Source: Geosiphon pyriformis uo1 (lineage: Eukaryota; Fungi; Glomeromycota). From it: DNA of 64,000 bases. The translations under genes and the position numbers were made by a program. Positions 24,601-56,364 of this stretch are shown one piece after another; position 1 is the stretch's first letter, and each line of letters opens with the position of its first letter. The notes beneath the pieces were generated by a model. It was not told the DNA's origin. It saw only the letters and a program-made list of their open reading frames with translations, and made no database searches. The stretch lies in NCBI GenBank assembly GCA_016748015.1, contig JAAOMT010000439.1, positions 331,527 through 395,526 on the forward strand, read 5' to 3'.

Positions 24601-26357
24601 GCAATGGATTAGGTGTTTATAAGAATCTCATCCCAATCGTATGGTTTAGGGATTATAGAAACTCAAGCTCTTTTCCACAAAACAGACACATTCTCTACTG
24701 TCAAACAAAAATTCAGTAAACCCAAAAGACACTTCAACACCATATCATCACAGTGCTTCCACAACTCATTAGAAATACCAGACAGACCAGCAGCCTTGCC
24801 ATCAGATAAATTGTTAACCACCAAAAGCAACTCATTCATATTGATCGAGCATATTATATCAGAAAAAGTATTATCTCTTACATAGTCCAATGGAGCATAC
24901 TAACAAGTCTAGACATCAGACACAACCGAAGACACAGTTTTTTTCCTAGTCCAGTCCTCCATGATTTCATTAACACCAAGTTTTACCATATCTGGCTCCA
25001 ACACCAAATCATTACCAATAACCAAATGATCAAGAACCACCTTATGGAAAGGCTGATCCAAAACACTTCTAATCATCACACCCTTATTAAAACAAAATTT
25101 TTCTATGTGGCACTCAATGGCCTTCCGAACAAAAGCTTCCTCAGCCAACTTTAACTCATATATTTTGGATTTTCTGTACTCCTTCCGAATTAATGACAAT
25201 TGCCTTAAGACATCCAAAGACTTGCTACCAACCCGGATCATATTGGCAATCATGGCAGTCTTATTACTATCCAGTTTGGCCCAGACATTGATAAGCTGAT
25301 TGATTCTTTGTAAATCACCCAATCCCAGTCCTTTAACAACTTTAGCAACTAACAGTTCCAACCTGAAAAACCTAGAAGAAAATTTGTTCCTGGAACACTG
25401 AAACTCACTGAACCAATGTTTTGAAAATATCCTATCTGCTGAGTCTACCAACACCTTTTCCAAAAGTACCCATATGTCATTCACATCAGCACAAGACAGA
25501 GCATCTGAAAACTCACCAGACACAGCCAAAAGCTTGGCAGAAGAGCAATCCTTAAACCAAGACTATTTAATCCCATCAGCAGTCTTAATGAGAAACTTCT
25601 AGTGATCTTTGTTAGCCTGCTTGCACAAGCTATTCAAATGGCCATCTAAAAGGCCACCCAAACCAATAGAGACAGAAACCGCACAGTGATCAGTGTCAAA
25701 AAAGTTGGAAACAGAGCCAACCTTATGATCAGTGACAGCAGATGCCAAACTCTCACTAACAAAAATGAAATCAATAGTCTTTTTCACCCCTCTAGAATTA
25801 CTCTATGTAGAATTACTGACTAAAGAGTGGCCAGCAAATGAGTTGACCAAACCCAACCCCAGACAGAATTTGAAACTCACACTTCTTTTAGATCCATTTT
25901 CATTGAAATCCCCACCCAAAACAATGAAACAGCTGGAGTTAACAGCCTTAGCAATGACAGAGTTTACTTTAAAAGCCTGACCAAAACAAATTCCAGAAGA
26001 TACACCTGCATATAAACCAATAATAGATACTGAAAGCTTATCTTTGAATAAGAGATGTACCACTATGACTCGATCAGGAACTTCCTCAATCTTAGTGACA
26101 TGACAGGCCAAAAAGTCGGCCATAATAATAACCACCCCAGCACCATGAAAACTCTTATCCAAACCCGAAGAAAAAATCCGCACACTGTTAAATTTATTCA
26201 CAATCCACAGCCTAGTTGAAGACCTTAACTTTGTTTTCATGATGATAGAAATCAAATTTCCAGAATCAAAATGCCAATACACAACATCCTCTTGTTTAGC
26301 AGGAATGTTGATGCCACGAACATTACATATAGCCATCTTCCAAACCAAGTCATTCAT
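21668..26357 (-). pseudogene. LINE ORF2 (APE-RT-RNaseH-Zn finger), disrupted
   Basis: Motifs CNVRG, LGGDFN, TIDFIF, TDH, DGLDQGEVFSPLLW, FVDDTI, FMDGS, SSTMAELQA, DSQLAID and CLLC..E..DHVFMC. Confidence 0.92.
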
Positions 26358-28218
26358 TGGGGTGAATAGGTCAAAGACAAACTCGTACCAGAACACAGGA
26401 GATCTAACTTCACCAGAATTGAACCAAACAAAGCCTCTAGAACAGACAACTTAGATTCCAAATCACCTACCTTGAAGGTAAAAACTTTTGAACCACTTGA
26501 ACTGAGAATGGCAGCAGACTCACTACCACCAGAAAAGGGAGGATCAACTGGAGCCAACACATCATCCAGAGCCATATCTGAATCCACAACTGGAGCCAAA
26601 GACATGGAGGCAGCCAAAAGAAAAGCACAAGAAGAAGATACCAATGGCACCAGTTCAATGAAACTCAATTTTTTAAGAATAACAGCAACTTGATCTGAAA
26701 GAATCTCCAAAGAGTGCTTTAACACCACTAAACAATCATTTAAACTGACAACTTGAGGACTAAAAGGGCCCAAAAAGAAAGGTGTGCCACCAGAAAGAAA
26801 ACCAGAACTGGAAGGGAAGCTACCAGAAGATGAGGCAATAGACACTACTTAAGCCCATGATTTGCCACCAAAGACAGCAGAACAAGAGATGGGAACATTT
26901 TTCTTGGCATACAATCTTGTCAGCTGAAGATGATTCGCACCAAAAGAAGGTTTTTTAAACAACCCAGAAGATATAGGAGGTAGAACAACAAAGGCATCAC
27001 ACTCAAGGGCTGAATGACTCAAATGGCCACATTTCCCACACCAAACCAAATCTAATCTAGCCCAAGAAAGACAAATGTCACCGAAAATAGACTCAGTAAG
27101 AAAAGCAGATTCCAACTCCTTGACAGATCCAAAGCCAACCACAGCACAACAAAATCTATTGCCAGTTTCCAATGAACAGTTGATAACACAAGTTTTTCTG
27201 CCAGCTTTTTCCAAAAGAGTACCAAGATCATGCGCAATTGTCTCCACTGGCAAAGTAAACAACAGCACTCTAAACCAATCCCTAGACACCCAGATATCAT
27301 GATCCCCCACTGCTTTAGCAACATGTACTGAATTTTTTTTGATCAGGAATGACTATTTTAAGGCCAACAGATTGGCTTGACTCGATTCGGCAAACTTCAC
27401 CACAGCCTTCTGCCACATGCTGATCAACTGAATCTTGATAGATTTAATTTCCCCAAAAGTGGATACTGCAGTGACAATTATCTCTTTTGGTGTATCTATG
27501 GGAATTTTTTTAATGACAATAGCCCGATCTGAGCGCATTCCTTGTTTTTGAAGATTGGTGTTTACAATGATCCCATTTTCTCTGGCCAATGATATGACCT
27601 TTTCCATGCTCTCTTCAGAAGTAAGGGTAGATCGAATAATCCCTTCAAACTTTGAGGGGGTAGTGGTCCCCCCAAAACCATTGACTGAAGAAAAAAATTT
27701 TCTAATTAGCCGGGTCTTCACCATTGCTGAATTACCTTTCACAGCTGAGAGATTAATATCCAATGCAAATGATTTCTTAATTGATACTTCCACAGAAGTC
27801 TTAATAATTTTTGGATTGATCCACTTTTTCTCCAGAGAGATAGGCAAGCGAGGAGGAAGCACAATTTCATCATTATCTATAGTAAAATTAGGAGAGCCAA
27901 GTGGAGAGCCAAACATTGCACCAGTATTAACACGTTTCACCTTGGGAGTAGTGGCAGCTGAGCCCAGCAGAGACCTCTCATTTATATCAGTCATGTCAAC
28001 ATTCTCATCATTATCTGACATACTATCCACATTAGAATATACACTATCACTAGGCTCAGATTTACTCAAAGCAATATCTTTTTTGTTACCAGAATGTTTA
28101 ATATTCCCAAGAACCACTTTTTTTTCTAAGCAAAAGAACCACTAGCAGGACCATGGAAAGCACTTTTGGATGTCTTTTTTTTGGACATATTACTGCTTGA
28201 AGCAGTTTTCAAATCCAT
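26354..28218 (-). pseudogene. LINE ORF1 (RRM-like plus CCHC), disrupted
   Basis: Fragments 27353-28117, 26849-27310 (CGKCGHLSHSALEC) and 26354-26845. Homologous to copy 1 ORF1. Confidence 0.85.
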
Positions 28219-28685
28219 AATGAAAGGATTATTTAAAAAAATGTTGAAAGATTTGACAAGAAAAAACAGAAAACTTCTTTTTCAGAAATGCACCTTTTTT
28301 GAGAATTTTGGAGGTAAGAGAGAAAGAAGTTTTTTTATTTTTATAATAAAATTTTTTTTGCTAATTGCTTTTTAAATTTAATTGTTTTTTTTTAATTCTT
28401 TATATGTTTTTGTAATTATAATTAAAACAAGTAAAAATTTTTCTAATTTTTTTTTTAAGTTATTAATTGTATTGGTTTTAATTTAAAATTATATTTATAA
28501 TTTTATTATTATTAAAAAATATTTCAGTTGTTAATAATTTATTAATTATTATAATATAATTTTTAAAATTTTTGATAAATTGTTAAATATATTTATAGTA
28601 ATTAATGGTTTAATTTCTTAAATTTTTAATTTTTAATTATAGAAAAAAATATATGTTTTTTGTTAATAGTTTTGAATTATAACAA

Positions 28686-29530
28686 TATTACAGATGATTA
28701 TTTAGGATCTCAAAGCAAATAACAAATCTGTAACTTGGTGCTTGATTGGTATTCTGGTGTTAATATCTAAAAATTTGATTGATCTAAAAGTTTTTGTATA
28801 GAGTTCTTTGTATAATAGACAGAGATTCAATAGTTGTTTCAATAGCCTCCCAGAATTGCAATTCCATCAAATTTTTTCTCAGCATGGTGGCTGGTAATCC
28901 TCCTGATAAGCTATCCTCAAATCTATGAGTGTTCTACCTTTGTTTTACAGGTTTTTTACCAGTCCCTATGACATCTATAACTTAGCACTTTAATTCTTGA
29001 TCAATTAGTCAACCAAAAAAAATACAAAAGAAATAAAAAAAAATAAAAAAAATAAAAAAATAAATAAAAGCAATTGCAAGTTAATATCCCATCAATAGTC
29101 ATGATTAAGAGCTATTGTTCCAGTATATTTAAGTATCAATTACTATTAACATGAAGTGTTAATAGTGGAGAGTAAATTAAGATAGTGAATAATTATTTAT
29201 TGATATTTGTGAATGGAAGATTGTTTAGATCAGATCTAAACTGGGAGATCCTTTTTTCTACTTTTAATACTACTGCTATATATATATAATTGAGATTTCC
29301 CCATTCCTCAATTCTTTATATCAAAAATCTTGGAATTCTTAGAATTCTGCAATTTCTTTGAAAGGAATCCTGGAATTTTGGAATCTTGTGATTCCTTGTA
29401 CAAGAATTTTGAAATTTCTTGAATTTTGCAATTTTTCTGAAAGGAATCTTAGAATTCTATATTTACTATGACTACTTCTAATTGACTAATTTATATGCTA
29501 ATATATACTTCTTATATTCTATGAGTAATA
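28686..29530 (-). repeat. 3' LTR of element A
   Basis: Homologous to 47051-47829. Termini TATTACA...GTAATA are mutated TGTTACA...GTAACA. The PPT complement ttattctctcttttt follows. Confidence 0.9.
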
Positions 29531-29543
29531 TTATTCTCTCTTT

Positions 29544-30173
29544 TTAATATTGAGTTCTATCAAGATTTTCTAATTTTAATTCTCTGTCTTTGAGTATTTC
29601 TTGAATTTTTTTTTCAAGAATTATTTGTGCTATCTTGTTCTGTAATTTTTCAAATTGTGCATTTGTTATTTTTTCTATCTGGTTAATAGTAATAAAGTTC
29701 ATTACTGGATTAAGTAAGATTTCTGGTCGATCTTGAAATCTAGTATGTAGTCAATAGATGGCTCTTGCTTGTGTTATTAGATTGTTTTTTCTCACAAATT
29801 GTTCTAGTTGTTACAGTATAACTGTGTCAAATAATCATTTTGTTTTATCCATGTATAAATTCTGAATGTTCAAGTGTCATCCTAGGTGAAAGTAACAAAA
29901 GTTTTTTGGAAATTATTGTATCCACCAATTCCAAGTTTCTATAGTCAACTCTTAGTATTGGATGACTTTCAGTTATGTTTCTATCACCACTTTCACTTTT
30001 GTAATTATTTTGTTCATGGTGTTCTCTATTTTCCTTTATATTTTGTCTTGTGGTCTTTTTCTGGTGTTTATGTATCAGATAATTTGTTGGTTGATTGTAA
30101 TTTCTATTTTTTGTTGTTGTATTAGTTAAAAAAGTTGTTGTGCTAGTAAGTAAATGCTGTCAGTAATCTCCAT
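29544..30173 (-). pseudogene. Element A ORF3 (unknown protein, 210 codons, env position)
   Basis: ATG 30173 to TAA 29544 is 630 nt. Reads MEITDSIYLLAQQLF...QLEQFVRKNNLITQARAIY*LHTRFQDRPEILLNPVMNFITINQIEKITNAQFEKLQNKI. Homologous to ORF3 of B and C. Contains internal stops. Confidence 0.7.
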
Positions 30174-30229
30174 TTCTACTGTCTTTTGTCATGTATACTG
30201 TGTCTTTATATATTCTTTTGGTTGTTTAA

Positions 30230-31608
30230 TTTTACATGTTTGGTTCAATAATTATGATTGATTCTAAATCTTGTAAAATCTTATCTGGTTTGACTAGTAT
30301 TTCTTGTACTCCTAATTGTAGAATATTACTAGTGGATGATATTGTTGTATTGTGGTATGGCTTCAGTTGATCTTTATGTGCTGCTTTGGTTAAGAATTTG
30401 TTGTTCAATCTTAATTTATAAGCTCCATTTCCAAGAATTTTTTTTATGTGAAATAGTTCATCCCATTTGGGGTCAAATTTTCCACTCCATTGTTTTTCTG
30501 CTTTGGTATAATATAAAAGTACTTTGTCTTCAATCTTAAATTCAACTAGTTTCTCTAATAGTTGGTTATTGTGTCTTTTTTTTTGTTTTTTCTGTAACTT
30601 TTATATATTATCAGCTACTCTTTGCCTTTTGTTTTCTAGTGTTTCCTTTAAGGCATATGTTTTTCTTAACAATGTTCTTTGGAAATTTTCTTCTGTTATT
30701 GGTTCTGTTGGATATGTTTGTACTTTTATCTCCACTGGTAGTGTTGCTGTTTTACCATATACTAATTCAAATGGTATTGTTTGTGTAGTATCTTGCTTCA
30801 TTGTCCAATAAACAAATAAAACTGATAGTATGAACAGATTCTATTTATCTTGATTTTCTTGACTGATTTTGGCAATTGCTTTACATAATGTTCTATTGAA
30901 TCTTTCAACTAATCCATTGGTTTATAGATGATATGGTGATAACAATGATCTTTTAATTCCAAATCTTTGACTTAATTCTTCTAATGTTCTATTTACAAAG
31001 TGAGTTCCTTGATCCAATAGCAATTTTTTTAAACATTTGTGTTAACAAATCAAGTCTTAATAAACGAATTCAACAATGGATTCTGCATTTGCTCTTTGAA
31101 TGGCTTTTGCTTTTGGCCATTTTGTGAGATAATTCATGATTACTGCAATATATTTGTTGCCTTTGTTGGTGATTGTTAATGGTCTGACTAAGTCAATTCC
31201 AATGTGATTGAATGGTTGTTTCACTTTGATTGGTCTCAGTAGTTCACTGAGTTTTGTTCCTCCTTTTTTCTGACAAGCATCACAATTTTGAACATATTAA
31301 ATAATGTTTGGATATATTAATAGCCAATAATATCTTTTTCTGGTTCTTTCTATTGTTGCTTCTTTATGAAAATGTCCTGCTGTTGGATCTGAGTGCATAT
31401 TAAATAATATTGTCTCTTTTTTTGGTTCTGTAATTACTCTGGTTGATTGGTCTGAATTCTTTTTGTTCTTCTGATAAAGTATATTTTGGTGATTGATAAA
31501 ATATTTTGATTGTTGTTTTATGTTATTTTGTTTTTTTTGAAATAATTTTTCCTTGAAAAATTGAGTATTTATATAATATTGGAGTTGTTGGTATTTTTGT
31601 ATATTCAT
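30230..31608 (-). pseudogene. Element A integrase (separate ORF), disrupted
   Basis: MNIQKYQQLQYYI..., HHCC domain (MHSDPTAGHF...YYW...C..C), then rve core and PFELVYG. The 3' end is approximate. Confidence 0.85.
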
Positions 31609-31673
31609 CTTTTGTTATATTTTTGGGTTGAAATTTTTTTAAATTTGTCTCATTTATGACAAACTGTTGGCAT

Positions 31674-32276
31674 TGTTACAGTTTAAAAATTTAGCAAAAA
31701 GAATCATAAAAATAATACAAACTATTCAATCATAATATAGCACAGTAATAATCTTAGAAAGGTAATGATTAACATAGTAGCAAACACCATCTCGCGATAG
31801 TGGCAAGCACCAGTTCACAATAGCAGCCAACACCAACTGGTGATAGCAGCAAACACCAGGTTGAAATATCAAAAANNNNNNNNNNNNNNNNNNNNNNNNN
31901 NNNNNNNNNNNNNNNNNNNNNNNNNNNNNNNNNNNNNNNAATTGATAAAAGCTTTATTGTGAGAATTAGAAAAGCACTAAAGACTATTAACATTCTGTGT
32001 TTCTAGATTAGAGAAACACATCAGGCAATTGCAAGAATAGCCTTAGAGAAGACCCCAAACAGTGGGTAGATTTCAATTCAGCCTCTGAGAAGAAGTACAT
32101 AAATACACACAACAATCAAGAATTAAAGAATAACTTACATCACAACAGTAAAAAGAAAGCCTTCAGTGTAACAGTGACATTATCACACAAATAGAATTGA
32201 GGAATTCATGAAAGACTGATTGCAATTAAAGTGGGATATCTGCAATTAAATATAACAAGAAAACTATTCTGTAACA
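31674..32276 (+). repeat. 5' LTR of element B (contains an undersized N gap)
   Basis: Near-identical to 39930-40796. The 64 Ns stand in for about 330 bp present in the 3' LTR. Confidence 0.93.
31876..31939. other. Assembly gap (N run)
   Basis: 64 Ns. Confidence 1.
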
Positions 32277-32296
32277 TTTGGTGAACCCTATGAAGA
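32277..32296 (+). promoter_or_regulatory. Primer-binding site of element B
   Basis: ttTGGTGAACCCTATGAAGA directly after the LTR end. TGG is complementary to tRNA CCA. The cognate tRNA was not identified. Confidence 0.75.
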
Positions 32297-35200
32297 AAGA
32301 AAATCAAAAAGGAAATAATAATTAGCAATAATTCATTGCTAAAAAGGAAAAGACAAAAGTGGCGACAAAAACCCCTAATCTTACTGTTCTTGAATTCTGC
32401 CATGCTATTTACACACAAAATCAAAGTGATCTTGAATTACCAGAAGGGTGTTGTCCAGCAGAATCTGCCCTCACTTATTATATTAACGCCAGAATAAATT
32501 ATTATATAGAAAAGGAAGAAGAACCACATGATGCAAAACTTGGATTGTATAGAGAATTATCACAATACACTACAAAAGAAGTAGCAGTAATAGCCGCAAC
32601 TATTGTCAAAATCCATCGAGAAATTGAGCAATACGCCAACGAAAATTTTCCAATATTCACAGGAAACACTAAGGAACGCACCAACAAAACCAAAAAAAAT
32701 TTAGAAACTAATCAGGAAAGTAACCAGCAAAAACTAGGAACACCAGCTCAAACGCCAAAGAAAACTGTCACTCAATCAATAAAGAAACAACGTATTTATT
32801 CACCAGAAGATAAATCATACCATTTTTCACCAGAAAATAAGATACAAATTCCATTAGGAGCTGTATTATCATCAACATCAACTCCACAAATGCCAAGAAC
32901 TCCTAGTTATATTGATAAAATTAAACAACGTAACTGGGGAGACATACCAATTACAGGAAGATATTCATCACTATTCCAAAACCCTCTTTTTCAGCCAAAA
33001 TTTAGAACGGGGTTTGAAAACCGTGAAGAGGAGTTTGAATCAGAATCCAAAAAAGAGACCAGTGAAAAAACAATCACAAGACCAGTCACTGGAACAAGCA
33101 GCCAGTCCAGAAACCAAAAAACTCGTGATCAAGAGGAAGAACCAGATATAAGGGAAGCCACCTTTAGGAATGCTCAAGAAAATATCATCCCATCTCCTCT
33201 TAGACCAATAAACTCACCAGCAGAAAATGGCAACAAAATGACCACACCATACATTGCAAGACTAACAGATTTCTCAGAAGAGGAAGAAGAAACGGACGTG
33301 CACACATGGCTCAGAGAAGCACAAAAAGCCATCCAGGCAAATAACTGGAATGACCAAAGAGCAATTTAAACATTACTTTTCTTCCTGAAAGGCACAGCCG
33401 ACTCGTGGTATCAAAGCCTGAAAACAAAACCCACGAGCTTCGCCAAATTTAAAAATGCACTTCTGGAGTATTTTAGCGACTCAAACACCATAATCCAACT
33501 ACAGAACGAATTCAATACTATCAAGCAAAATACCGGTGAAACTGTCACCCAATATCTTGCTCGATTCAATCAAATTCGCCATCAGATTGAAGCGATTGAA
33601 CAAGGATACTACACTGATTCTCAGGTTTTAAATCAGTTTATTAGAGGATTAAAAAGCAGCATTTTAGGAAGAGTACGCCCTGCCCATTTTAATTCCTTAC
33701 CAAAAGCCATTACACTTGTCAGAGTCCTTAAATCGGCTGAAAAAGAAGCTAACCATAGTCAAATGGTTAACATAGTAATGGAGGAAAATAAGACAGAAAC
33801 ATTAGAGAAAAGAGTAACGTAATTAGGGGAGGAACTCTCTAAGAAAATAGAAAGTTACCTCATCCTGGATCTGAGAAAAAATACATACCAACCACTTCAA
33901 AAATGCAGCCAGGAAGTCAGCGACAGTCGAAATAATTGCTCATTGTGCCAGGAATTCAGAACAGAAACACGCGCCTGCCATTTTTGCAAATGTGTAGGAC
34001 ATTTGATTAGTCAATATCAAACGTGAATGATGCAAGAAGCACGTGAAAATAATTACTACGCGCCACCCCAAATACCCAGAAACCAGTACACGCCAATACC
34101 ACACCAATATCCCACCACATATCAAAATCATGGAGCTTACCAGCAACAGCCCATGATAGCCAATCCGAATTGGCGTCCTGAGGCCCGAAATCAGCCCATG
34201 TGAAACCAGAACGCGTTGGTCCAGAGGAATCCAAACTGCGCCAGAACCAATCAGCAAACCAATCCAAACTACCAAAATTATCAACAAACTTACCTTAATA
34301 TACCAGAAAACCTAATCATCAGAAACAATGATGATAGAAACATAAACAGAACCAAGAATTCCTCCAAATTGAGCCAGACAATACCACCAGCAGTTGCCAC
34401 CAAAGATAGCAGCCTCGCAGCTATTTTTCCTTTTGAATTAGAGGAAAACGAGGCTATGTTCAGTGGAGCAGTATTGGACAAAAAACGCCCAATCACTACT
34501 ATGTATACGGAAATCACTGTAAACAATACCCCAATCAAACTTATCTTAGACAGCAGATCCGCTGGAAGCATCGTAACGCTTCAACTAGTAAACCAACTGG
34601 GTTTCAAAGTTGATCGTGCCACGACATCCCAAATCATAACAGCCGATAGAAGTACAAAGCTGCCTCATGGCGAAATTGACTCATTCCCTTTCGAAATTAA
34701 TGGCATAGTAATACCTACAAAAGTATTAGTAATGGATGCTACACAATATTAAGCATTAGTAGGAAATGACTGGCTAACAAAAGCCAATGCCACTTTAGAC
34801 TGGACCACCCAAGAGCTTCTGATCAATTATAATGACCACCAAGCCAAAATTCCAGCCACCTGTGGCCACTTCCAAAAACCCAGTGCCAACCAAAGACCTA
34901 CCTTCAAATTTGAGGAAAATCCAGCATTACCAGCCATCAAAACCTATCAGCTCTCTTGGGCTGATGACTAAAGAACAGGACTACCAGCCGTACCAACGTG
35001 GACCAGCGAAGAAAGATCTGAATAGAACCAAGTAAGTTTACAAAGAAACCACCAGCGATGCAGACCAAAGCTAGAATGCTCAGTTTGCAAGAAGAAACTC
35101 TTGTCTATGACTGCATGCAGCGCACCGGACGAAGACCCAAGAAATCCCACCCACTACTATTGTAACCATTGTAACAAAGAAAAATACGGTTACCCAGAAA

Positions 35201-38067
35201 GACACAGAAAATGGGACAAGGAACCATGCCTTGCTTGTGGAGAACCATTACCAAGAGGGTGCGACTGGAACGACTTACCAGGCAGAGGAGGAACATGTGA
35301 CGCAATTTGCCAATACACAATCCTCATCTGTGACTGGGTAAGAGGAGGAACGCCGTTCGAAGCAGTGTTCAACAGAGCGTTAAAAAAACTACAGCACTAC
35401 CCACATGACGAGAACAAGTTGTACAACACCACACAAGCCAAAGTAAGAGAAGGAACCACCAAAGAAATATGACATTGGAAAGAGTCAGCCAAAGTAGCCG
35501 ACGAAGTCGCCAACTACAACATGTTTGACCCAGTGGACAAATTTCAGGACTACTACCAACAACTATGCCTCACTCGACAAGAGCAAGAACAATACCTCAC
35601 CCAAATCAACACTTACCTCTGTGAAAACTGTCTCATCCCGTGCCAAAATCAGTGTTGTGAAGAGTATCAAGATGAAAGAGACTTAAAAAGAAAAATGGAA
35701 ATTGAGAATCAGCAGTCTCAAAATCAATCAATAAATCAACAAGACTCACCTGATGGTCCTGAGTCAGAAAAATTTGTAGCCTATACTGACCTAGAACAGG
35801 TGACCAACATCCGATACTTTGACAATGGGCACTTAGGAATAATACCCGAAAGAGCCCATCTAACTAATGCCGGATTCGATCTACGTTATCCAGAAGACCA
35901 ATCCACAACATTACCACTCAGGAGCATCACCAAAATTGACCTAAAAATAGCAGTTGAAATTTTACCAGGAATAATGGTTCAAATGGTGTCATGATCAAGC
36001 TTTGCGAAAAAAGGAATAAGCGTTCAAGGAGGAGTAATTGACTCTGGATACACTGGAAATTTGATGGTTTTGCTATAAAACAATTCAGAAAAACCTTATA
36101 CCATTGAATCTAAGGAAAAGATTGCACAAGCAATTTTCCTACCATTGGTAAAAATTGGGAAATTTGTGCCAGTGGAAAATCGTGAGGAATTGTCACAAAC
36201 AACGAGAAGAACTTTTGGTTTCAGATTGACAGGAAAAGGAATTGAAGCGAATTTCGCTGAAACAATAGAGGAAAAAGGTGAAGTAATTAAAAATGAGTGG
36301 TCCATCACGCTCCTACTATATGGAAAATCAGAAATAAGAATAAAAAGGACAATTAAAGAAAAAGACCTAATATTTGAGCCCTATCCAGAAACTTGCCAAC
36401 AGTTTCTCATAGGACTTACTAACCTTTTTATTCCAGCTAATAAAGCTCAGTGGATAAAAATTCCTATCGCAAACACCACAGAAGAACCCATCTACATTCT
36501 GGAAGATACCATCATTGGATACCTCAGAACGGAGCTAGAAAATGCGTCAACACTACAAGAAATTCTAAATTTCCCAGAAATCGCCCTCTACTGTGAACTC
36601 ACTTCAATAAATTGGCAACAACCGTTAGAATGCTATCAATTTACACCAGAAGAATTGGCCAAATTAAACATTGGAACAATGGATCCTGACCAACAGCGAC
36701 AATTAAAAGCATTAATTTTAAAATACTCTGATATATTTTCAAAAAATGGCGAATTTGGAAGAACCAACTTGGTTCAACACCAAATCCCCACTGGAAACGC
36801 CAGACCTGAAAAACAATGCACTTACCGTGTCCCACCAATGGAACATAATTTTATCAGAGAAGAAGTCCAAAGCATGTTGAAAAAAGGAATAATACAACCA
36901 TCAATGAGTCCATGGTTCTCACCAGTTGTTTTAGTAAGGAAAAAGAACGGAAAAATTAGATTTTGCGTCGACTATCGCAAACTAAACAGCAAAACAACCA
37001 AAGATTCATACCCAATACTGTTAATTGACGAAATCTTCGACGTTTTTGGAGGAGCAAAATGGTTTTCTATACTGGACTTGACCAGTGGGTACTGGCAAGT
37101 GGAAATGGACCCAAAGGACAGACATAAAACAGCATTCACAACACAAAATAGCAATTATGAGTTCAATGTAATGCCATTTGGATTAACAAACGCTCCTGTG
37201 ACATTCCAAAAACTAATGGACATAATTTACTCCAGAATCCTGTGGCAATCTGTTGTTGTCTACTTGGATGATACAAATGTTTTCTTGTCAAAATTCATGA
37301 ATCATCTCCAACATTTACAACAAGTTTTTGAGAGATTGAGACATGCTGGACTTAAACTAAATCTAGAAAAATGTTTCTTTGGGAAAAATGAGCTAGTATT
37401 TTTAAGACACGTAGTTGGAAAAGATAGAATAAAACCAGATCCATCAAAAATAGACAAAGTGAAAAATTTTCCAGTACCTTGAAACGTTTTAGAAGTTAGA
37501 AGCTTTTTAGGACTCGCATCTTACTACCGCTGCTTTGTAGAAAACTTTTCAAACATTGCCAAACTCCTTAATTACCTACTATCTAAAAATGTGAAGTTTG
37601 AATGGACTGAAGCACAACAAAAAGCTTTTGAGTACCTTAGACAAAAGCTCATTGAATCACCAATAATGATCTATCTGAATTTCAACAAGAAATTCATTTT
37701 GGCCACAGATGCCTCTGGAACTGGACTTGGAGCCATTCTGTCACAAAAAGATGATAATGGAAGAGAACGTGTAATTGCTTATGCCAGCAAAAGTCTCAGT
37801 ATGGCAGAACAAAACTACGCAGCATATGAACTTGAATGCTTAGCAGTAGTCTGGAGTTGTGTTCACTTTGACACATATTTACGGTACCAACCCTTTGAGA
37901 TTACGACAGATCATAGAGGTCTGGTCTGGTTAAATAACAAGAAAGCGCTAAAAGGAAAATATGCCAGATGGTCACAAATGTTAGCACCATACAATTATAT
38001 TATCAAATACAAAGAAGGTACCAAAAATGTTAATGCTGACTGTTTGTTAAGAATGAGACACACATAA
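32290..38067 (+). pseudogene. Element B single-frame polyprotein: N-terminal domain - Gag(CA, CCHC) - protease - Cys-rich domain - dUTPase - RT - RNase H
   Basis: ORF fragments starting at 32359, 34216, 35101, 35521, 36145 and 37591 are all in one frame and are separated only by point stops. CA: W..E......NNW.D...FLKGTADSWY. PR: LILDSRSAGS. RT: RFCVDYRKLN, LDLTSGYWQV, MPFGLTNAP, YLDD. RH: TDASGTGLGA, ELECLAVVW, TDH, NADCL. Confidence 0.93.
35836..36236 (+). other. dUTPase domain within the element B polyprotein
   Basis: All five trimeric dUTPase motifs are recognisable: AGFDL, (R>*)SSFA, GVIDSGYTG, KIAQ and RRTFGFRLTG (from RGxxGFGSTG). Confidence 0.92.
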
Positions 38068-38096
38068 AAATCACCAACCCACCCGCCACAACAACA

Positions 38097-39369
38097 ATGA
38101 ACAACCACCTTTACAAAAACCTCAGCCAATACTTGGAAACACTACAAATAGATGAAGAAATGCCAGTAAAAGAGCTAATTAAGCTCCAAAAATTAGCAAA
38201 ATACTATTTCATCTAAAATCACATACTTTATTACCAGAATCGACAAAATCCAGATAATCCATTAAGAGTTATAACCATGGATGAAAAAGAAACTATTTTA
38301 TTTAACATGCACTCAGATATTCATTCAGGCCACTTTGGAAAAACAGCAACCATTCAACGTGCAACTAGCCATTACTATTGGCCAAAAATGAGTTCAGACA
38401 TAATCCAATACATAAGAAATTGTGACCCATGCCAATAAAGAGGAAGAGCAAAAACAACGGAATTATTAAGACCAATAAAAGTTGAACAGCCATTTGACAG
38501 AATCGGAATTGATTTAGTTGGACCTTTACCAATAACAACAAGAAACAACCGTTATATTGCAGTAGCCATGGACTATCTCACCAAATGGCCAGAAGCTAGA
38601 GCTATTAAAACAGCTGATGCTATTTCCGTAGCTCAATTCGTACATGAAGACTTAATTTGCTGACATGGATGTCCACAAGAATTGTTATCAGATCAAGGCA
38701 CACACTTCGTAAACAGCACCTTAAAAGAACTTAGCCAAAAATTTGGAATCAAGCGACCACTGTTATCACTATACCACCCTCAAACAAATGGATTAGTTGA
38801 AAGATTTAATCGCACATTATGCAAATCACTGGTGAAAATTAGTAACGAACATGAAAAAGAATGGGATTTGTTCATACCAGCAGTACTACTAGTATATAGA
38901 ACAGTAAAACAAGATATTACACAATTCACACCATTTGAACTAGTTTATGGAAGAAAAGCCACATTATCCGTTGAACTTACTATCTCAACTTATCCAAGTG
39001 ACACTATTACGGAAGCAACATTCCAGGAAACACTACTTAGAAGAACATACAAATTAATAGGAACTTTAGAAAACAAAAGAAAAAAAGCAGCACAAAATAT
39101 TGAACAATCACAAGAACAACAAAAAGTGAGACATGATAACCAGTTACCAGATAATATAATTAGCTACAAAATTGGAGATAAAGTATTGTTGCATCGTACA
39201 AAAATGGAAAAACAGTGGAGTAAAAAATTTGATCACAAGTGGAATGGACCATTTTATATTCACAAAATACTTGGAAATGGAGCATACAAGCTAAGACTAG
39301 ATGATAAAATATTAAGAAAAGCAGCACATAGTAACTGGCTGAAATTCTATTACAGTAAACCAGTAATAA
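38097..39369 (+). pseudogene. Element B integrase (own ATG, different frame from RT-RH); runs into an N gap
   Basis: MNNHLYKNLSQYLE..., MHSDIHSGHFG...YYW...CDPCQ, IGIDLVGPLP, DYLTKWPEA, LSDQGTHF, YHPQTNGLVERFNRTL and GPY/F motif WNGPFYI. Confidence 0.92.
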
Positions 39370-39643
39370 NNNNNNNNNNNNNNNNNNNNNNNNNNNNNNN
39401 NNNNNNNNNNNNNNNNNNNNNNNNNNNNNNNNNNNNNNNNNNNNNNNNNNNNNNNNNNNNNNNNNNNNNNNNNNNNNNNNNNNNNNNNNNNNNNNNNNNN
39501 NNNNNNNNNNNNNNNNNNNNNNNNNNNNNNNNNNNNNNNNNNNNNNNNNNNNNNNNNNNNNNNNNNNNNNNNNNNNNNNNNNNNNNNNNNNNNNNNNNNN
39601 NNNNNNNNNNNNNNNNNNNNNNNNNNNNNNNNNNNNNNNNNNN
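39370..39643. other. Assembly gap (N run)
   Basis: 274 Ns hide the integrase end and ORF3 start of element B. Confidence 1.
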
Positions 39644-39916
39644 ACAACTATCCAACTATTAGAACCTTTCATTGGAAAAACCAACACTATATTCCATTCA
39701 AAAACAGTTTACAGAATTTTCAAAGCATTTGAAAACTGTTACAAATTATTGTTGGACCCAACCATAAACATAATAACAACCAACAGTATTACACGTCTTA
39801 CCAACTCGCAATTTCAAGAATTACAACAACAAATTAATAACATAGTATTGAACCACTATAGTAACTTAAAATTTAATGAAGAAATTAACTTCGATTTCGA
39901 CGGAGCTCAATCTTGA
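39644..39916 (+). CDS. Element B ORF3, C-terminal 90 codons (5' part lost in the gap)
   Basis: Open frame TTIQLLEPFIGKTNTIFHSKTVYRIFKAFENCYKLLLDPTINIITTNSITRLTNSQFQELQQQINNIVLNHYSNLKFNEEINFDFDGAQS*. The stop abuts the PPT. Confidence 0.72.
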   Translation, partial: TTIQLLEPFIGKTNTIFHSKTVYRIFKAFENCYKLLLDPTINIITTNSITRLTNSQFQELQQQINNIVLNHYSNLKFNEEINFDFDGAQS

Positions 39917-39929
39917 AAGGAAGGGATAA
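39915..39929 (+). promoter_or_regulatory. Polypurine tract of element B
   Basis: GAAAGGAAGGGATAA immediately before the 3' LTR TGTTACA. Confidence 0.85.
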
Positions 39930-40796
39930 TGTTACAGTTTAAGAATTTAGCAAAAAGAATCATAAAAATAATACAAACTATTCAATCATAATATAGCACA
40001 GTAATAATCTTAGAAAGGTAATGATTAACATAGTAGCAAACACCATCTCGCGATAGTGACAAGTACCAGTTCACAATAGCAGCCAACACCAACTGGTGAT
40101 AGCAGCAAACACCAGGTTGAAATATCAAAAAAAAAGTATTTTCTCGTAGAACTACAAACATGTATATATACAGTAGTTTTAATATTGGGAAATAATCAAT
40201 CAAGTAATAAAAATCATAACTTATCAAGCAACAGATCCAATTTTATCCAACAAACTTCACTTTAAATCATACTTTCAAATTAAATATCCCAAGAAACCTT
40301 TAAAAATCAAAAAGAAATGAAAAAGAATATTTAAAACGGAACTATCACAATCCAAAGTATTAAGAAACTTACTTGTATTATTTATTGAATGAAACTATCA
40401 TTCATCAACTGAATCCCTTGGAAGAATAATCCTTGATCAAGATTATTCACGTTGTTACTAATTAATAAAAGCTTTATTGTGAGAATTAGAAAAACGCTAA
40501 AGACCATTAACATTCTGTGTTTCTAGATTAGAGAAACACATCAGGCAATTGCAAAAATAGCCTTAGAGAAGACCCCAGACAGTGGGTAGATTTCAGTTCA
40601 GCCTCTGAAAAGGAGTACATAAACACACACAACAATCAAGAATTAAAGAATAACTTACATCACAACAGTAAAAAAAAAGCCTTCAGTGTAACAGTGACAT
40701 TATCACACAAATAGAATTGAGGAACTCATGAAAGACTGATTGCAATTAAAGTGGGATATCTGCAATTAAATATAACAAAAAAACCATCCTGTAACA
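39930..40796 (+). repeat. 3' LTR of element B (867 bp)
   Basis: TGTTACA...TGTAACA termini. Direct repeat of 31674-32276. Confidence 0.95.
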
Positions 40797-43700
40797 GCAT
40801 TTTTGTTTTGTTCTCTTTTTTTGTAATGCACTATATAATTAAATAGTGACAGTTCTATTTTCCATTTAACATGACAATTATCTGCAAATTTTTGTTTTTG
40901 AATTGAAATCAATTCTTTATGATCTATGTACACATCAAATTTTTGACTCAAGTATTCTTTTCATTTCATAACTGCTCAATAGATTACTAAGTGTTCTAAT
41001 GCTAGTGTTCCATAGTTCTTTTCTGCTGGACTTAAGCTTCTACTGGCATAAGCTATTGAATGTTTTCTTCTATTTGGTCTTTTCTGTAATAGTACTGCTC
41101 CCAATGCTTGGTCTGATGCATTAGCAGTAATAATAAATAGTTTGCTGTGATTTGGATACATTAATACTAGAGCTTGAATAAACTTTCTTCTCAGTATGTC
41201 GAATGCTTCTTGTTGAGCTTCTGTCTATTTATACTTTATATTCTTAGTTTGTAAATGATGGAATGGCTGAGCCAGTTTAGAAAAATCCTTGATAAAATGA
41301 CAATAATAGTCTGCAAATCCCAAAAATGCTCTTAGTTCTGTCAAATTGGTTGGCACTAGAAAGTTTTTGACTATTGCAATCTTATCCAAATCTGTTTTGA
41401 TACTGTTTTTGCTTACAATATGTCCCAAAAACTTGAGCTCCATTTTGCCAAAGAAGCATTTGTTGGCATTTAGTTTCAATCCTACTTGTCTGAGTCTTTC
41501 AAATACTTGTTGGAAATGATACAGATAATCATCAAATGTTTTTGAGAACATATTGGTGTCATCCAAGTATATGACTACTGATTTCTATAGTAGTCCAATA
41601 TAGACAATTTTCATAAGTCTCTGGAAGATAGTTGGAACATTCATCAAGCCAAATGACATAACTTCAAATTCAAAGTTTTCTTCTCAAGTTGTAAAAGCCG
41701 TTTTCTTTTTGTCTTCTGGTTTTATGGCTACTTACCAGTAACCACTGTCTAAATCTAACATTGAAAACCATTTCTTTCCTTTAAAAACATTGAAAAGTTC
41801 TTGGATCTTTGGAGTTGGGTAGCTGTCTCCTTTTGTTACTTCATTTAGTTTCCAGTAATCTACACAAAAGTGGATTTTTCTATTCTTCTTATGGATTAGT
41901 ACCACTGATGATAACCATGAGCTCATTGATGGCTAAATTAGCCTATTGTCAAGCATCCAGTTGATTTTTTGACAAATGATCTCATGGCTAGCTAGTGGTA
42001 CTCTGTATGCTCTTTGCTTAATTGGCATTACATCTCCAGTTTTTATCTGATATTAAATAATGTCTGTTCTGCCAAATTTGTTTTCACTGAGAAAAATGTC
42101 ATTGAAATTGTTGAGTAACATCTTGAGTTGCATCTGTTGAAGTGAATTTAAGTTTCCTATGTTTATTTATTCTAATTGTTCTAGTTGGAGCAAATAATAT
42201 TTACTTCGTCCATAAATTGTTTGTGATGTGATTTCAACATATCCACAAAGCTATGGAAAGTCTGGAATAGAGTTTGGTGGTTGGTCTTCTACTTCTGTGC
42301 TTAGATATTTGATGATGGTTCCTTCTGGTATTTCTACAATATTTCTTGTGTTGTTATAGATAGGAATTTTGATGTAATTATGGTTCTTGGCAGGTATGTA
42401 GAGATTAATGAGTTCAATCTTTTCTGATTTACAAATAATTAATTTGGCTTCAAAAATCTGTGCTTGATCTTTCACTTTTTTATCTATAGTGTACATATAC
42501 TGATCATATGATAGAATAGAAATTAGTTGATGGATTGAAATAATTTCTTCTTTGTCAACAATTTTTTTTTCTGCCATATTAACTGGTACATCTATTCTAT
42601 TTGTTGATCCAAATTTCTGTATCTTTCTTGCTGTTATCTCTAGTTCTTTCCTATTTTCTACTAACACTAACTGAGTTATTTTCACCAAAGGTAAAAATAT
42701 AGTCTGTGCTATCTTTTCATTTGGCTCTATGATATAGGCCTTTTCCAAATTATTTTGTAGCATTGCAATAATATTTTCTATATATTCTGTGTCAATTATT
42801 CCTCTTCTGATGTTGATTCTTTTTTTTACTAAACTACTCTTAGATACTAGTTAAATCATGATTGTTGCTAAGATTTTTAGTGTGATTTTGAGATCAATAC
42901 AAGTGCATAAATGGGGTTCCAGTTTGATGGTGTCTTTTCTTAGATATCTCAGATCAAACCTTGCATTGGTATTGTGTGCATGTTTTGGCATGATACTTTC
43001 ATTATTATCACTAAACCATTTAAGTTCTTGCTTCTTAAAAAGATCAAGAAGCACAATATATGTTTTGGGGTTTGAATCGAAGTCCAAATTGTTATTAATT
43101 TTGTTATCATATTGAGTAGAACTGAAACCATTGTTTTTGTTATTGTTATTGTCTAAGTTTGAATTGGAATCAAAATCTGATTTTGATTCTGATATGCAGC
43201 TGCTAATTGGTTCTTCCTTTTTTGGAATTATGTAAATCATATGTGTTGGTAGATTGTAAATGAGGTTACACTCATTACAATATTGAAAGTTATATGGAAT
43301 TAAACAATGGTCACATAATCAAGTGTTGATTTTTTCAAAGCATTACTTTTGCTCTTCTCTTGTAGATGTTAGCTTTTAGTAGTGTTTATAGAATTGTTCT
43401 GGATTTAAGAGGTTTATGACTGGTTCTGGGTCCTAGTCGAGTTCTATGGTTTCTGGTAAATTATTTTTGATTGTCCTTATTTCTTTTGGTGACACTTCTT
43501 CGATTTTGGTGAAAGCCATTTGCCAAATTTCATTGTCATTATGTGGACAACCATCCAAGCATTTGACTGCTCATCTTTAGGCAGCATCTATAGACATTCT
43601 TTTTTTTTTCCAGTTACTTATGAGAATCATGTACTAACATAATTTATTGCATGTTCCTCCTCTTCCAAGAATGTTATTCCACATTTCTTCATTGAGAAGA

Positions 43701-46700
43701 GTTTCTCCACAAGTTAAGTATGGCTCATTATCTTATTTTTCTACTTGTTTTGGTCTGCCAAAGTGCTCAACAAGACATGAGCAGCAATAGAACTTAGTTG
43801 CTATCTGGTATTCCTCATTGTTATCACAGCATGCACCCATTGATGATAATTTCTTGTCACAATCAATACACTCTAGTTTTGATCAACAATAATTAAACAA
43901 TTGTGGTTGAGTGTAAATATATAGATGGTAAGTGGTAGTTGGTATTAGATTTTCTTCTTTTTTTTTTTTTTCCTTATAATTGTTTTCTTTCTACTTCCAA
44001 GTTGTTGTCAGTTCATCCTGATTATTGTTGGTTTTCCAGGCTTGGTCAGCATTCCAGGTAAGTTTTTCCCTTTGTTTTTCTTTTCTATTGTCATCCCAAG
44101 AAAGTATTGGTAGTAGCTCATTGTGGTTTTTGTTAGCCCAGAATACTTGATAGGCTTTCCAGGTAGGTTTTTTTTTTTTTTTCTCAAATTTAATAAGTGG
44201 AGCTAATGGTGTAATAATGGATTTGAAGTGTCTACATGTGGCAGGTACCCACATGTATCGACTGTTTTGGCTAAGCTGTAGTTCCTGCATGTTCCAGTCA
44301 AGCATGGCATTTGTTTTAATTAGCCAGTCATTACCAACTAGTGCTTGATACTGTGTAGCCTCCATTACCAAAACTTTGATTGGAGTAATAATACCATTTA
44401 TTTCAATGAAAAAATTATCAATCTTACTAATAGAAGTCTTGGTTGCTCTATCAGCCATTATTATTCTGGCATTAGTAGCATGATCAACTTGGTGACCTAA
44501 TTGGTCCATAAGTTGTTGTGTGATAATGCTGCCTGCTAACCCACTATTAAAAATAAATTTGATAGTATGGCCATCCACTTTGGCATTAGTGTACATGGTG
44601 GTGATTGATTTTTCCTTGAGTGTGGTTCTACTGAATAAAGGAGTTGTTAATGGTTTTTCACTTTCAAAGAAAAATATAACTGCGAGTAACTTGTCTTCCA
44701 TGATGGTAGTTAATGATATGTTGCTGGTAAGTGATTTCTAATTTGTTTTTAAGTTGTTGGATAAGATGTCTTCTGGGATAACTAGGAGACTTAAATAGTT
44801 CTAAGAATTTGGGTTTTGAGTATACCCAGTTCCTAAACTCTACTGTTGTGATCCTGATGACTGGTTGGGTAAACTGGAAATCAGTTGGTAAACAACTATT
44901 GCCAATCTCCAGTTTTGGGTAATTTTTAATCTGGGATTTCTGGATGTCATCTGAGCTGGGTTTAATGGCAGTATTGGAATTGGTGGTTATTGATATATTA
45001 CTTGTGGCTGTGGTTAATAAATAACTGATGCTGCCAGTTAATAAAATGGAGCTTGATATACCAGTGGTTAATAAATTGATGGCTGCATCACTAGTAGATA
45101 ATTCAATTAATATATTTCTGGATTGGGTTGATATCTCAGAGTTTGAAACTAGTGATTGGGTTTTGATATTGATTTCCTGATCATTGGTTTTTTATTCTTA
45201 ATCTGCAATCAATTCTCAAATGTTTTTGTTTATCACAGTAGTGGCAAACACGCATCTTTTGTAGCCACTGTTGATTGGTGAATAATGATGGATGCGATTG
45301 ATTTTGGGAATGATTCACATTTTCTTGATTATTGCGTTGTTGTGGAGATTAATAAACTGCTTAATTGTTAGCTAAATATCCCTCTAATTTTTGGTTGATG
45401 AAATTATTGAATTGTTTCAACTTAGGATCCAATTCAGATGATCTGTTCATTACTAGATAAATAACTTAAGCGTAGTTAGCTTCAAGTTTAACTGCTTCAA
45501 AATCTCTGGCATTTGTAATGGTGGCTTGAAGATCTGCAGAATGCATTGGGCATACATGCTGGAGGATACTACTGTATAGACCTCTAATGAATTGATTTAG
45601 AATTTGTGGTGCTGTAAAATAATCAGTCTGAATTGCCTGAATTTGGTGCAGATTCCTATGGAAGCATCCTAGGTAAGTGGTAACTGCTTCATTTTCTCCT
45701 TGCTTGATAGTGGTAAAGGTGTTTGCTAAACAATTAATACTATTATTGTTACTGAAGTATTGTAAAAATGCAAGCTTGAATGCATTGAAATCCTGAGGTT
45801 TTTTGGCTAGGCTTTGATATCATGAGTCAGCAGTATCTTGGAGAAAATAGGAGATGGCTTGCATGGCTCTGACATCATCCCATCTGTTGGTTGTGATGGC
45901 TTTTTCCATATCATTTAGTCACACTTGGGCATCGTCCTCTTTGCCAGTGAATTTTTCAAGTTTTACAATTGGTGTGTATGCCATTTGTGATTGTTGTGAT
46001 AGTGGTAGTTGAAGTTGTTATTGCAGCTGTTGAGACAGTTGTTGTAGTTGCTGCAGTGGTACTGGCAGCAGTTGGATTTACTGATTCAGTTGTTGTAATG
46101 ACTGACCAATTAGTTCAACTGGTTAATTAATTATGATTTTTGAAAGTATGTGCTATTGATTAATTAAATCGGAATTTTGATTGTTCTGATTTGACAGTGT
46201 TTGAATATTCAGAGTTCCAATTTCTGGATGTTCTAAATTTGGATTTTTCAGAGTTTGAACATTCGGGGTTTCAACTTCCGGGTTTTCTGGGATCAAGTTT
46301 TGGTAAGTAAATTCCTGATCCTCTTCTTCTTCTTCTGATTTTGTTACTTTCACAGATCAAAAATTCCAAAATTGGGTTGAGATGACAGTGATTGATATCT
46401 TGATGGCATTGGTAATTGCAATTTAAATTCTTTAAAATATTTGCTATATGGTCCTAACAATTCTGCTCTTCTTTGTTTGCTTTGGAATGAGAATCATCTA
46501 AAGATTGATGTCATATTTGATGTGAATATGTCTGCTGATGAAATATTGATGGCACTTCCTGGTGTATAATGGTATAATGAATTGGTTGGTGATTCAATTC
46601 TGGTTTTCTTTCAAGTGGGTGGTTGTATTTGTTTTGGTGTTACTGTTGGTGTTTGCAATCTTTCTTTGCCTTTGTCTGCATAAGTGATAGGGAATTGTTG

Positions 46701-47030
46701 TTGTGTGTACTTTTCAATGGTTTGATTGATTTCTCTGATAATTGGTGTGAAACTGTAGTTTCTTGGTAAGCTGGTATGTTGAAATAATTCTGTATAGAAA
46801 TTTTCTTTTGTGGATTCAATGTTAACTGTTCCTTCTAAGCAGTTTGTGATTTTATCATTGACATAAAAGTTGAAGACTGATTCTACTGGAAAATGATTAT
46901 TGTTTAATCCTAATTGTTGACTGTACTGTTGAAACAAGGATTTGGCAAATTCTAAGTGGTTTGCTCCTATGATTTCTGATTCTGTCACTTTTGGATGATT
47001 GTTGTTAGTGCTGGTTCTCTGTAAGATTAT
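40797..47030 (-). pseudogene. Element A polyprotein (N-terminal domain, Gag, PR, Cys-rich, dUTPase, RT, RNase H), heavily disrupted
   Basis: CA from ATG 45984 (MAYTPIVKLEKFTG). PR FIFNSGLAGS (~44550). Cys-rich KLECIDC...GRGGTC (43250-43880). dUTPase ARFDL/KIAQ/FGST (42590-43000). RT FCVDYWKLN, LDLDSGYW, YLDD. RH ANASDQALGA. Confidence 0.9.
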
Positions 47031-47032
47031 AT

Positions 47033-47050
47033 CTTACAAGGAGCACTAAA
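47033..47050 (-). promoter_or_regulatory. PBS of element A (consensus with C: TGGTGCTCCTTGT)
   Basis: Minus strand ttTAGTGCTCCTTGTAAG after the LTR. C has ttTGGTGCTTTTTGTAAG at 59191-59174. Compatible with a tRNA ending GGAGCACCA, such as tRNA-Ile(UAU) (inference). Confidence 0.65.
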
Positions 47051-47904: not shown

Positions 47905-48158
47905 AAAAATTTTTTTTTCTCTTATTAATCCTTTAGCCATAACAAAAGTAAAATACATACCAAAGTTATAGGTTTTTTTTTTCTTTGTTTTTTTTCTAGT
48001 TATTTCTTTAAACACATCTTTATTTGTTATAATGAAACCAATAGACTTGTTTGCTAGTGGTTTTAGCTCTGGCTTGGCTGGTTTAAAGACCTGCTTTAAT
48101 ACTAAAAAGAAGCATATAAAAAGTGTCTATTTTTATGATACATTATTTAAAAAGCTAA
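47905..48158 (+). mobile_element. Possible 5' end (UTR plus ORF1 start) of another LINE, cut by the LTR at 48159
   Basis: A T-rich leader resembles the LINE 5'UTRs. It is followed by ATG 48032 and a G/T-rich, Ser/Gly/Lys-rich N-terminus (MKPIDLFASGFSSGLAGLK...KKK) that stops being credible at the LTR edge. Confidence 0.4.
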
Positions 48159-56269: not shown

Positions 56270-56331
56270 NNNNNNNNNNNNNNNNNNNNNNNNNNNNNNN
56301 NNNNNNNNNNNNNNNNNNNNNNNNNNNNNNN
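56270..56331. other. Assembly gap (N run) within a poly-T tract
   Basis: 62 Ns flanked by T homopolymer. Confidence 1.

Positions 56332-56364
<33 letters not shown>

Follow-up and report, generated by a model that had tools for sequence, protein, structure and literature searches.

A Ty3/Gypsy lineage in Geosiphon pyriformis and other fungi with a separate integrase frame and a third open reading frame

Element B is a 9.1-kb Ty3/Gypsy LTR element of Geosiphon pyriformis in which integrase (IN) and a third protein (ORF3) lie behind gag-pol, each in a frame of its own. It is a decayed copy, inactivated by stops, and is nested inside a relative, element A, within the 64,000-nucleotide stretch of DNA analysed here (the window). 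From comparison with related sequences, we think it probable that IN and ORF3 were translated by ribosomes that restarted after each stop. The three-frame layout is kept throughout a diverse lineage, with sequences from both Geosiphon and Rhizophagus among its members. The RNase H (RH) frame stops ahead of IN in 55/55 related loci with both domains, and where 800 nt of room is available, a member of the ORF3 family comes after IN in 30 of 36 loci and is absent from the other six. An earlier note on this DNA had proposed a three-cistron Gypsy lineage with a stand-alone integrase and a third ORF; that proposal holds, and reaches far beyond the window. The layout, common to many intact relatives, suggests ribosome restart, with three proteins made from one RNA.

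Anatomy of element B and its neighbours

The two LTRs of B are direct, have TG...CA ends, and are 96.7% alike, with 18 differences among 539 comparable bases, exclusively transitions. The 5′ LTR (31674-32276, + strand, as are all coding features of B) is broken by a 64-N gap (31876-31939) that stands in for 328 nt. The 3′ LTR (39930-40796, +) spans 867 bp. A 4-bp target site duplication (TSD), GCAT, flanks the pair (31670-31673 and 40797-40800). Two nucleotides past the 5′ LTR is a primer-binding-site (PBS)-like sequence that starts with TGG (32279-32292, +) and overlaps the first in-frame gag-pol ATG (32290), and a polypurine tract (PPT; 39915-39926, +) precedes the 3′ LTR. With these features and the domains below located, the order LTR, PBS, gag-pol frame, stop and ATG-initiated IN proposed for B is borne out. 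Paralogs of its products are Geosiphon pyriformis proteins, and LTR sequence makes up 41.2% of that genome (PMC11952901).

Cistron 1 (32290-38067) is a single gag-pol frame without integrase, interrupted by point stops. Domain searches of 32332-38067, which holds 11 internal stops, recovered Retrotrans_gag/Ty3_capsid, aspartic protease, dUTPase, RVT_1 and RNase H. Gag-pol and IN together have 14 internal stops, and at 13 of these the relatives most often carry Q, W or R; the earlier note had traced such stops to CAA, CGA and TGG codons. The frame begins with an N-terminal domain (32332-32700), kept in A and C at 28% identity, for which sequence searches gave no match, matrix included. The capsid (33253-33720) is followed by a degenerate CCHC zinc knuckle (33976-34017) that has lost its final Cys in B and is intact in A. 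Between the aspartic protease (34510-34779) and the dUTPase (35839-36225; E 1.4e-18) lies a Cys-rich insert (35041-35670) that belongs to no Pfam family. Its model is of low confidence (pLDDT 55), with only weak LIM/RING-type matches; the insert likely binds zinc. Cys-rich inserts in two related loci, L030 and L033, have no homology to it.

Reverse transcriptase (RT), with a YLDD motif, and RNase H occupy 36802-38067, ending in a TAA at 38065-38067. The frame closes 24 residues beyond its one RH domain, leaving no tether and no second RNase H. The best solved match (PDB) of RT-RH is Ty3 (1e-92), whereas the highest-scoring retrovirus reaches 6e-29. The earlier label 'retrovirus-like' is not supported, given this proximity to Ty3, the single RNase H and an ORF3 with no membrane span.

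Two relatives in the window share the domain order of B: the older element A (28684-47827, − strand), at whose RH end B is inserted, and the more decayed element C (48157-60137, − strand). Both mirror the N-domain, Cys-rich domain, dUTPase, separate IN and ORF3 of B. Because A and C are frameshifted, they show this domain order and not the single frame that had also been attributed to them.

The integrase cistron and how it might be expressed

Cistron 2 (38097-39369, +) encodes an integrase with HHCC, DDE and GPF/SH3 regions from its own ATG at 38097. Its final codons enter a 274-N assembly gap (39370-39643) that conceals where IN ends and ORF3 begins. The IN frame differs from the RH frame, and the two are separated by a C/A-rich, AUG-free spacer of 29 nt (38068-38096, +), compared with 30 nt in A and 31 nt in C. 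The best solved match (PDB) of the B integrase is again Ty3 (1e-36). It has no chromodomain up to the gap, and PF00385 is found in 0 of the best 120 stand-alone INs.

Start-codon features recur in relatives. In 71/76 loci an ATG falls no more than 4 codons from where the IN model begins, and 118 of the best 120 IN homologs (233-742 aa) begin with Met. A purine occupies position -3 at 43/51 IN starts versus 207/319 internal AUGs (p 0.006). AUG is present in 6/32 spacers against 18.2 expected from shuffles, and 0/500 shuffles were as low. Such AUG-poor spacers are compatible with any scanning from upstream.

Under reinitiation, gag-pol would be translated and terminate after RNase H, and ribosomes would restart on the same RNA at the RH/IN and IN/ORF3 junctions to yield three proteins. 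In one subgroup, a structured RNA right before the IN start would assist this step. A covarying 40-nt RNA motif, with double changes in 7/9 pairs, occurs in 22/80 relatives, always directly upstream of IN and at a distance of 9-41 nt from its AUG. It is absent from the 64-kb window, B included, and Rfam holds no family for it and none within B.

The same motif would also fit a different reading that we regard as possible, though unlikely: that the layout is real, and that IN and ORF3 come from internal ribosome entry or from subgenomic RNAs made by 5′ LTR splicing, an internal promoter or processing at structured RNA. The RH-IN spacers range from -20 to more than 300 nt; 7/51 exceed 100 nt and four of those seven contain AUGs, a situation that suits internal entry or subgenomic RNA better than reinitiation. 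Further, the ORF3s of LTR elements typically come from spliced messages (PMC5408684). However, stop and start overlap at 19/51 junctions, which would be purposeless under splicing, and many spacers, that of B among them, show by eye no AG acceptor before the ATG.

It is improbable that RH and IN are joined as protein, by recoding (frameshift or read-through) or by a small intron, to restore an ordinary Pol. Rhizophagus and Cetraspora gene models do fuse RH to IN (P0263, P0264, P0170 and P0179), as does the JGI protein P0265, yet the first four drop the conserved RH C-terminal motif and differ in their join points. This reading must also accommodate the use of all three IN frames relative to RH across the 55 loci (12/23/20), the wide range of spacer lengths, and in-frame stops a few codons ahead of the IN Met in most loci, and it leaves the invariant Met and its start-codon context unexplained. 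Least credible of all is that the split reflects decay of dead copies, despite the abundant stops and frameshifts of B, A and C, or a Ginger-like DNA transposon within the element, despite the free Gypsy-like integrases that Ginger elements are described as encoding (PMC2836005), since stop-free relatives split at the same place, the 55 of 55 split junctions contradict decay, and IN is invariably found behind RH in the same orientation, in B within one LTR pair with a TSD.

ORF3 and integrase delivery

Cistron 3 is visible in B only as its final 90 codons (39644-39916, +), because the gap hides the end of IN and the ORF3 ATG. The ATG start claimed for ORF3 is thus concealed in B, but can be seen in A (30173, with the frame running to 29545) and in C. 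Differences between the ORF3s of B and A number 35/15/41 at codon positions 1/2/3, and matches to the family include loci outside the profile training set. ORF3, whose predicted fold has pLDDT 96, is a conserved soluble helical protein. Hydropathy over 19 residues peaks at 1.32 across 28 relatives and at 1.18 in P0121, a paralog that is nearly identical, with no membrane span. A Pfam search found no family common to more than 1/34 members, and comparison with PDB sequences gave no match. Foldseek against PDB and BFVD returned nothing at E 0.001, and the best VIA score was Z 4.5; these results do not prove a new fold. A resemblance to DUF1016/DUF3102 was considered and found no support. The Geosiphon ORF3s connect weakly to the wider family (hhalign 56%, E 1e-4), and a bridging sequence, L008, reaches only E 0.012 against the rest.

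In Ty3/Gypsy elements, Gag-PR-RT-RH (PR, protease) makes the particle and reverse-transcribes using the PBS and PPT; integration of the cDNA by IN creates a 4-bp duplication, and dUTPase limits cDNA uracil. An IN made free of Pol would have to join the particle or cDNA non-covalently, probably through binding to element RNA or RT. We offer only as a rather doubtful proposal that ORF3, synthesised beside IN, may be a soluble accessory factor for bringing free IN to the particle or cDNA, or for nuclear delivery.

Extent, relatives and significance of the lineage

Sequence comparisons indicate that this lineage is defined by the RH/IN split and ORF3. Of the five features by which it was initially characterised, these two are general, whereas dUTPase occurs in 0/18 related loci spanning PR to RT, and homolog searches found the N-domain and Cys-rich insert only in Geosiphon paralogs and one metagenome protein. 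On this distribution, dUTPase, Cys-rich insert and N-domain are cargo of a Geosiphon-like subfamily, not lineage-defining. Trees of RT and IN were built from search hits only. In these, a single branch (SH 99) separates the stand-alone INs from 205 fused INs, which supports integrase monophyly. RT-RH does not resolve the lineage: two trees set it apart on a single branch, with SH values of 87 and 48, but a careful run gave two changes and showed the grouping in only 26% of bootstrap trees. Nested within the lineage is P0265, with RT-RH-IN-ORF3 in one frame, possibly a fused relative. A fused pol in intact relatives had been named as evidence that would count against the lineage; all 55 junctions are split, with P0265 as a possible exception beyond them. 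No relative was found in the viral contigs searched.

B resembles Ty3/Gypsy elements (Metaviridae, e.g. yeast Ty3) in its LTRs, PBS, PPT, TSD, Ty3-type capsid, PR-RT-RH-IN order and GPF-type IN. In the canonical layout IN is the C-terminal part of Pol, whereas the B lineage encodes it in a separate ORF that opens with a conserved Met, adds a third ORF and has no chromodomain; B differs from chromoviruses in lacking this domain at the IN C-terminus up to the gap. Foamy viruses express Pol apart from Gag, yet their IN stays in Pol. Like the B lineage, retroviruses, lokiretroviruses and errantiviruses carry a third ORF at the env position. B differs from retroviruses, lokiretroviruses and Odin in having neither tether nor second RNase H, and its lineage's ORF3 is soluble, without the env-like membrane span of retroviruses and errantiviruses. 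Betaretroviruses share dUTPase with B (PMC2774666). The idea of a separate IN in lokiretroviruses proved wrong, as their pol includes IN (PMC7947760); for Odin no support was found in literature text.

Among dUTPase-bearing fungal Gypsy elements (PosPlaTy3-5 of Postia placenta, Tuber Tmt1 and Phanerochaete elements), dUTPase lies between PR and RT, as in B. In the passages describing them, dUTPase sits inside Pol or at its ends and a separate IN goes unmentioned (PMC2864245), and B differs in the Cys-rich insert ahead of dUTPase. Juno, Vesta and TelKA of bdelloid rotifers share PR-dUTPase-RT-RH and an extra ORF3, and are described with IN in pol and ORF3s of env, GDSL, DEDDy, CC or TM types (PMC5408684), while the ORF3 of the B lineage matches no Pfam family. 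Ginger DNA transposons have a free-standing Gypsy-like integrase of ~400 aa, as the B lineage does, but are described with TIRs and no RT, whereas IN of B sits inside an LTR element, behind RT-RH and before ORF3 (PMC2836005). Full-text searches of the literature, which did not take in Repbase, GyDB or Dfam, turned up no account of a Gypsy integrase encoded in an ORF of its own, whereas dUTPase between PR and RT, and dUTPase together with an ORF3, had already been described (PMC2864245, PMC5408684).

In the LTR elements and retroviruses described in the papers compared here, Pol carries integrase into the particle. Where IN is made apart from Pol, some other route is needed for its translation and loading. 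We speculate, with rather less than even confidence, that this is a widespread, unrecognised fungal LTR lineage with a tricistronic RNA, which relies on coupled stop and start codons or on structured RNA of a new class before IN, and a new-fold protein that packages or escorts free IN. The RH/IN split explains why orphan 'integrase genes', and gene models that splice RH to IN, are numerous in arbuscular mycorrhizal genomes. The lineage would offer a eukaryotic polycistronic RNA, along with a new RNA motif that covaries and a small protein that matches no known fold in the searches above. If the tricistronic reading is true, the rule that integrase comes as part of Pol is broken in this lineage, which would let it serve as a natural experiment on the reasons for the polyprotein form of Pol.

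Element B and its surroundings

Self-comparison of the window resolves three related LTR elements. Element B (31674-40796, forward strand), a Ty3/Gypsy element, is inserted in element A (28684-47827, reverse strand), and element C occupies 48157-60137 on the reverse strand. A GCAT duplication flanks B, and its LTRs, which have TG...CA ends, differ by 18 transitions and nothing else over 539 comparable bases. A single gag-pol frame (32332-38067) encodes capsid, protease (PR), dUTPase, reverse transcriptase (RT) and RNase H (RH), and is interrupted by 11 internal stops. At 13 of the 14 internal stops in gag-pol and integrase (IN), relatives most often have Q, W or R, which is what C-to-T decay would produce. 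B, a dead copy, belongs to a subfamily that carries dUTPase.

The RH frame of B closes with TAA, and the IN ATG lies 29 nt downstream in a different frame. The equivalent spacers are 30 nt in A and 31 nt in C, so the three copies present three frame relations. A 274-N gap covers the IN stop and the start of the third ORF (ORF3), followed by 90 open ORF3 codons, a purine tract and the 3′ LTR. All ten ORF3 matches looked up are Geosiphon pyriformis proteins (best 91% identical), and the named IN homologues are from Rhizophagus, which makes Geosiphon or a near relative the likely host.

Other repeats in the window include an LTR-like insert inside C (53843-54726), an additional RT-RH remnant (61770-62900), a further LTR-like fragment where the window ends (63485-64000), and a degenerate LINE-like element bearing an endonuclease and RNase H, present as two inverted copies of 69% identity (1933-8754, forward; 21531-28345, reverse). 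Strongly CpG-depleted repeats surround a CpG-rich island of probable host genes (10686-16392, forward; 17638-19578, reverse), which encodes a G-patch protein (14811-15377) along with an ORF of 646 codons that has no Pfam match.

A separate integrase ORF

A search restricted to proteins of 233-742 aa, which leaves out fused forms, gave 1641 IN matches at E 1e-30. Met is the first residue in 118 of the best 120, usually some 70 positions ahead of the first zinc-finger His. Because of that size restriction, we examined DNA from the best 80 of 546 confirmed metagenome loci. Of these loci, 55 include IN together with the end of RH, and in every one a stop closes the RH frame ahead of IN, as the earlier note had read in B; IN is in relative frames 0, 1 and 2 in 12, 23 and 20 loci, respectively. 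Of the 76 loci reaching the start of the IN model, 71 have an ATG no more than four codons away from it.

Fused forms were sought separately among longer proteins. Four eukaryotic gene models were found, each with the RH C-terminal motif deleted, and one further model in which parts of RT are absent. The protein P0265, nested in the lineage, carries RT, RH, IN and ORF3 in one frame (at protein level only), and may be either a re-fusion or an alternative-code gene call. Identity to the reference IN is 39% or less for the remaining fused INs and 42-78% for members of the group.

Trees were built from search matches alone. In the FastTree IN tree, whose stand-alone rows were picked by similarity to B, 41 stand-alone INs share one side of a branch with six rows that are gene models or P0265, opposite 205 fused INs (SH 99). 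The 251-row RT-RH tree places the lineage on one side of a branch more weakly (SH 87); a quick 57-row version gives support of 48, and the careful tree gives two changes, with the lineage in 26% of bootstrap trees. The closest solved structure is Ty3 for both RT-RH (1e-92; foamy 6e-29) and IN (1e-36).

Particle assembly, reverse transcription and integration would follow standard Ty3/Gypsy biology, with ribosomes restarting after the RH stop to translate IN. Of the 55 junctions, 51 enter the statistics; three that lack an ATG were excluded, as was one whose stop comes early, and one stop and two ATGs were repositioned manually. Stop and start overlap in 19, and are separated by 0-30 nt in 5, by 31-100 nt in 20 and by longer distances in 7. 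Only 6 of 32 spacers contain an AUG; shuffling gives 18.2, and none of 500 shuffles reached so low a count. At -3, a purine is present in 43 of 51 IN starts, compared with 207 of the 319 AUGs that are internal (p 0.006). The overlaps, AUG-poor spacers and start context suggest that restart is the probable source of IN. Any route by which free IN would reach the cDNA, and any function for ORF3, is inferred.

The main rival, a subgenomic RNA or internal entry, seems rather unlikely overall, and may apply to a subgroup bearing a two-stem RNA motif. This covarying 40-nt motif lies 9-41 nt upstream of the IN AUG in 22 of 80 loci (L031:589-639 and 21 others alike), with one weak match besides. In it, 97% of cells pair, against only 29-56% in slid controls, and double changes occur in 7 of 9 pairs, a figure that related sequences can inflate. 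It has no Rfam match and is not present in the 64-kb window. The motif indicates that some members of the lineage control the IN start separately at the RNA level, and it could be a translation element, a nuclease-resistant RNA or a ribozyme. Recoding that joins RH and IN fits these junctions poorly and is improbable; decay as the origin of the split, also a poor fit, is most improbable. Restart stays our preferred reading.

The third ORF

ORFs after IN in the metagenome loci are mostly 120-240 aa with an alignable common core. A profile built from 29 of them also matches 12 loci outside the training set, two being near-copies of training rows. With training rows counted in, the family stands behind IN in 30 of the 36 loci that leave 800 nt or more beyond IN, upholding the third ORF claimed for B. 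The Geosiphon ORF3s match the wider family with a profile-profile probability of 56% (E 1e-4; score 32 versus 14, the highest value among 100 column shuffles), and the ORF3 of locus L008 lies near them (E 3e-15) and at only E 0.012 from the rest. Judged by these comparisons, the Geosiphon ORF3s are divergent family members. Between B and A, 64 codons show 35, 15 and 41 differences at positions 1, 2 and 3, a pattern indicating that ORF3 was a constrained protein. The predicted fold of the L021 ORF3 has eight helices (pLDDT 96) and no Pfam, PDB or viral fold match. ORF3 has no membrane span; it is not an envelope, which lends no support to the earlier note's retrovirus-like label.

At L039:1945-2889, a NUDIX hydrolase (E 1.4e-10), another nucleotide-sanitising cargo, replaces the ORF3 family. 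An HTH protein ORF follows IN at L011:6546-6944, and a coiled-coil ORF (L019:7458-8258) and a short ORF (L029:2855-3208) lie between IN and ORF3, so some members may carry four cistrons.

Cargo domains and the extent of the lineage

The earlier note had combined five features into one lineage. Stand-alone IN and ORF3 prove widespread; dUTPase does not stand as a lineage feature, having no match among the 80 loci, of which 18 extend from PR to RT. The PR-Cys-dUTPase-RT string is stop-free in one ENA protein, P0154 (46% identity), and in P0166, which has no IN, dUTPase follows RH at the C-terminal end of Pol, a second dUTPase position in the group. Published work already records dUTPase in Gypsy elements (PMC2864245), and dUTPase together with an ORF3 (PMC5408684). 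Conservation of the N-domain is limited to A, B, C and Geosiphon paralogues, and a sequence search with it gave no match.

In other subfamilies, unrelated inserts rich in Cys and His precede RT or follow RH. An acidic Cys/His-rich Pol extension of 215-345 aa follows RNase H in L024 (4348-5166), L044 (3084-4115), L050, L054, L059, L060, L073 and L079, with no Pfam family in the two scanned. Between PR and RT, L030 (7001-7915) and L033 (1680-2594) carry a Cys-rich insert with CCHC-like repeats and no homology to that of B.

The literature searched, which does not extend to Repbase or GyDB, yielded no account of a Gypsy lineage whose IN has an ORF to itself. As its sequences read, the B-type lineage is a real variant of Ty3/Gypsy, defined by stand-alone IN and ORF3, and apparently an undescribed one.
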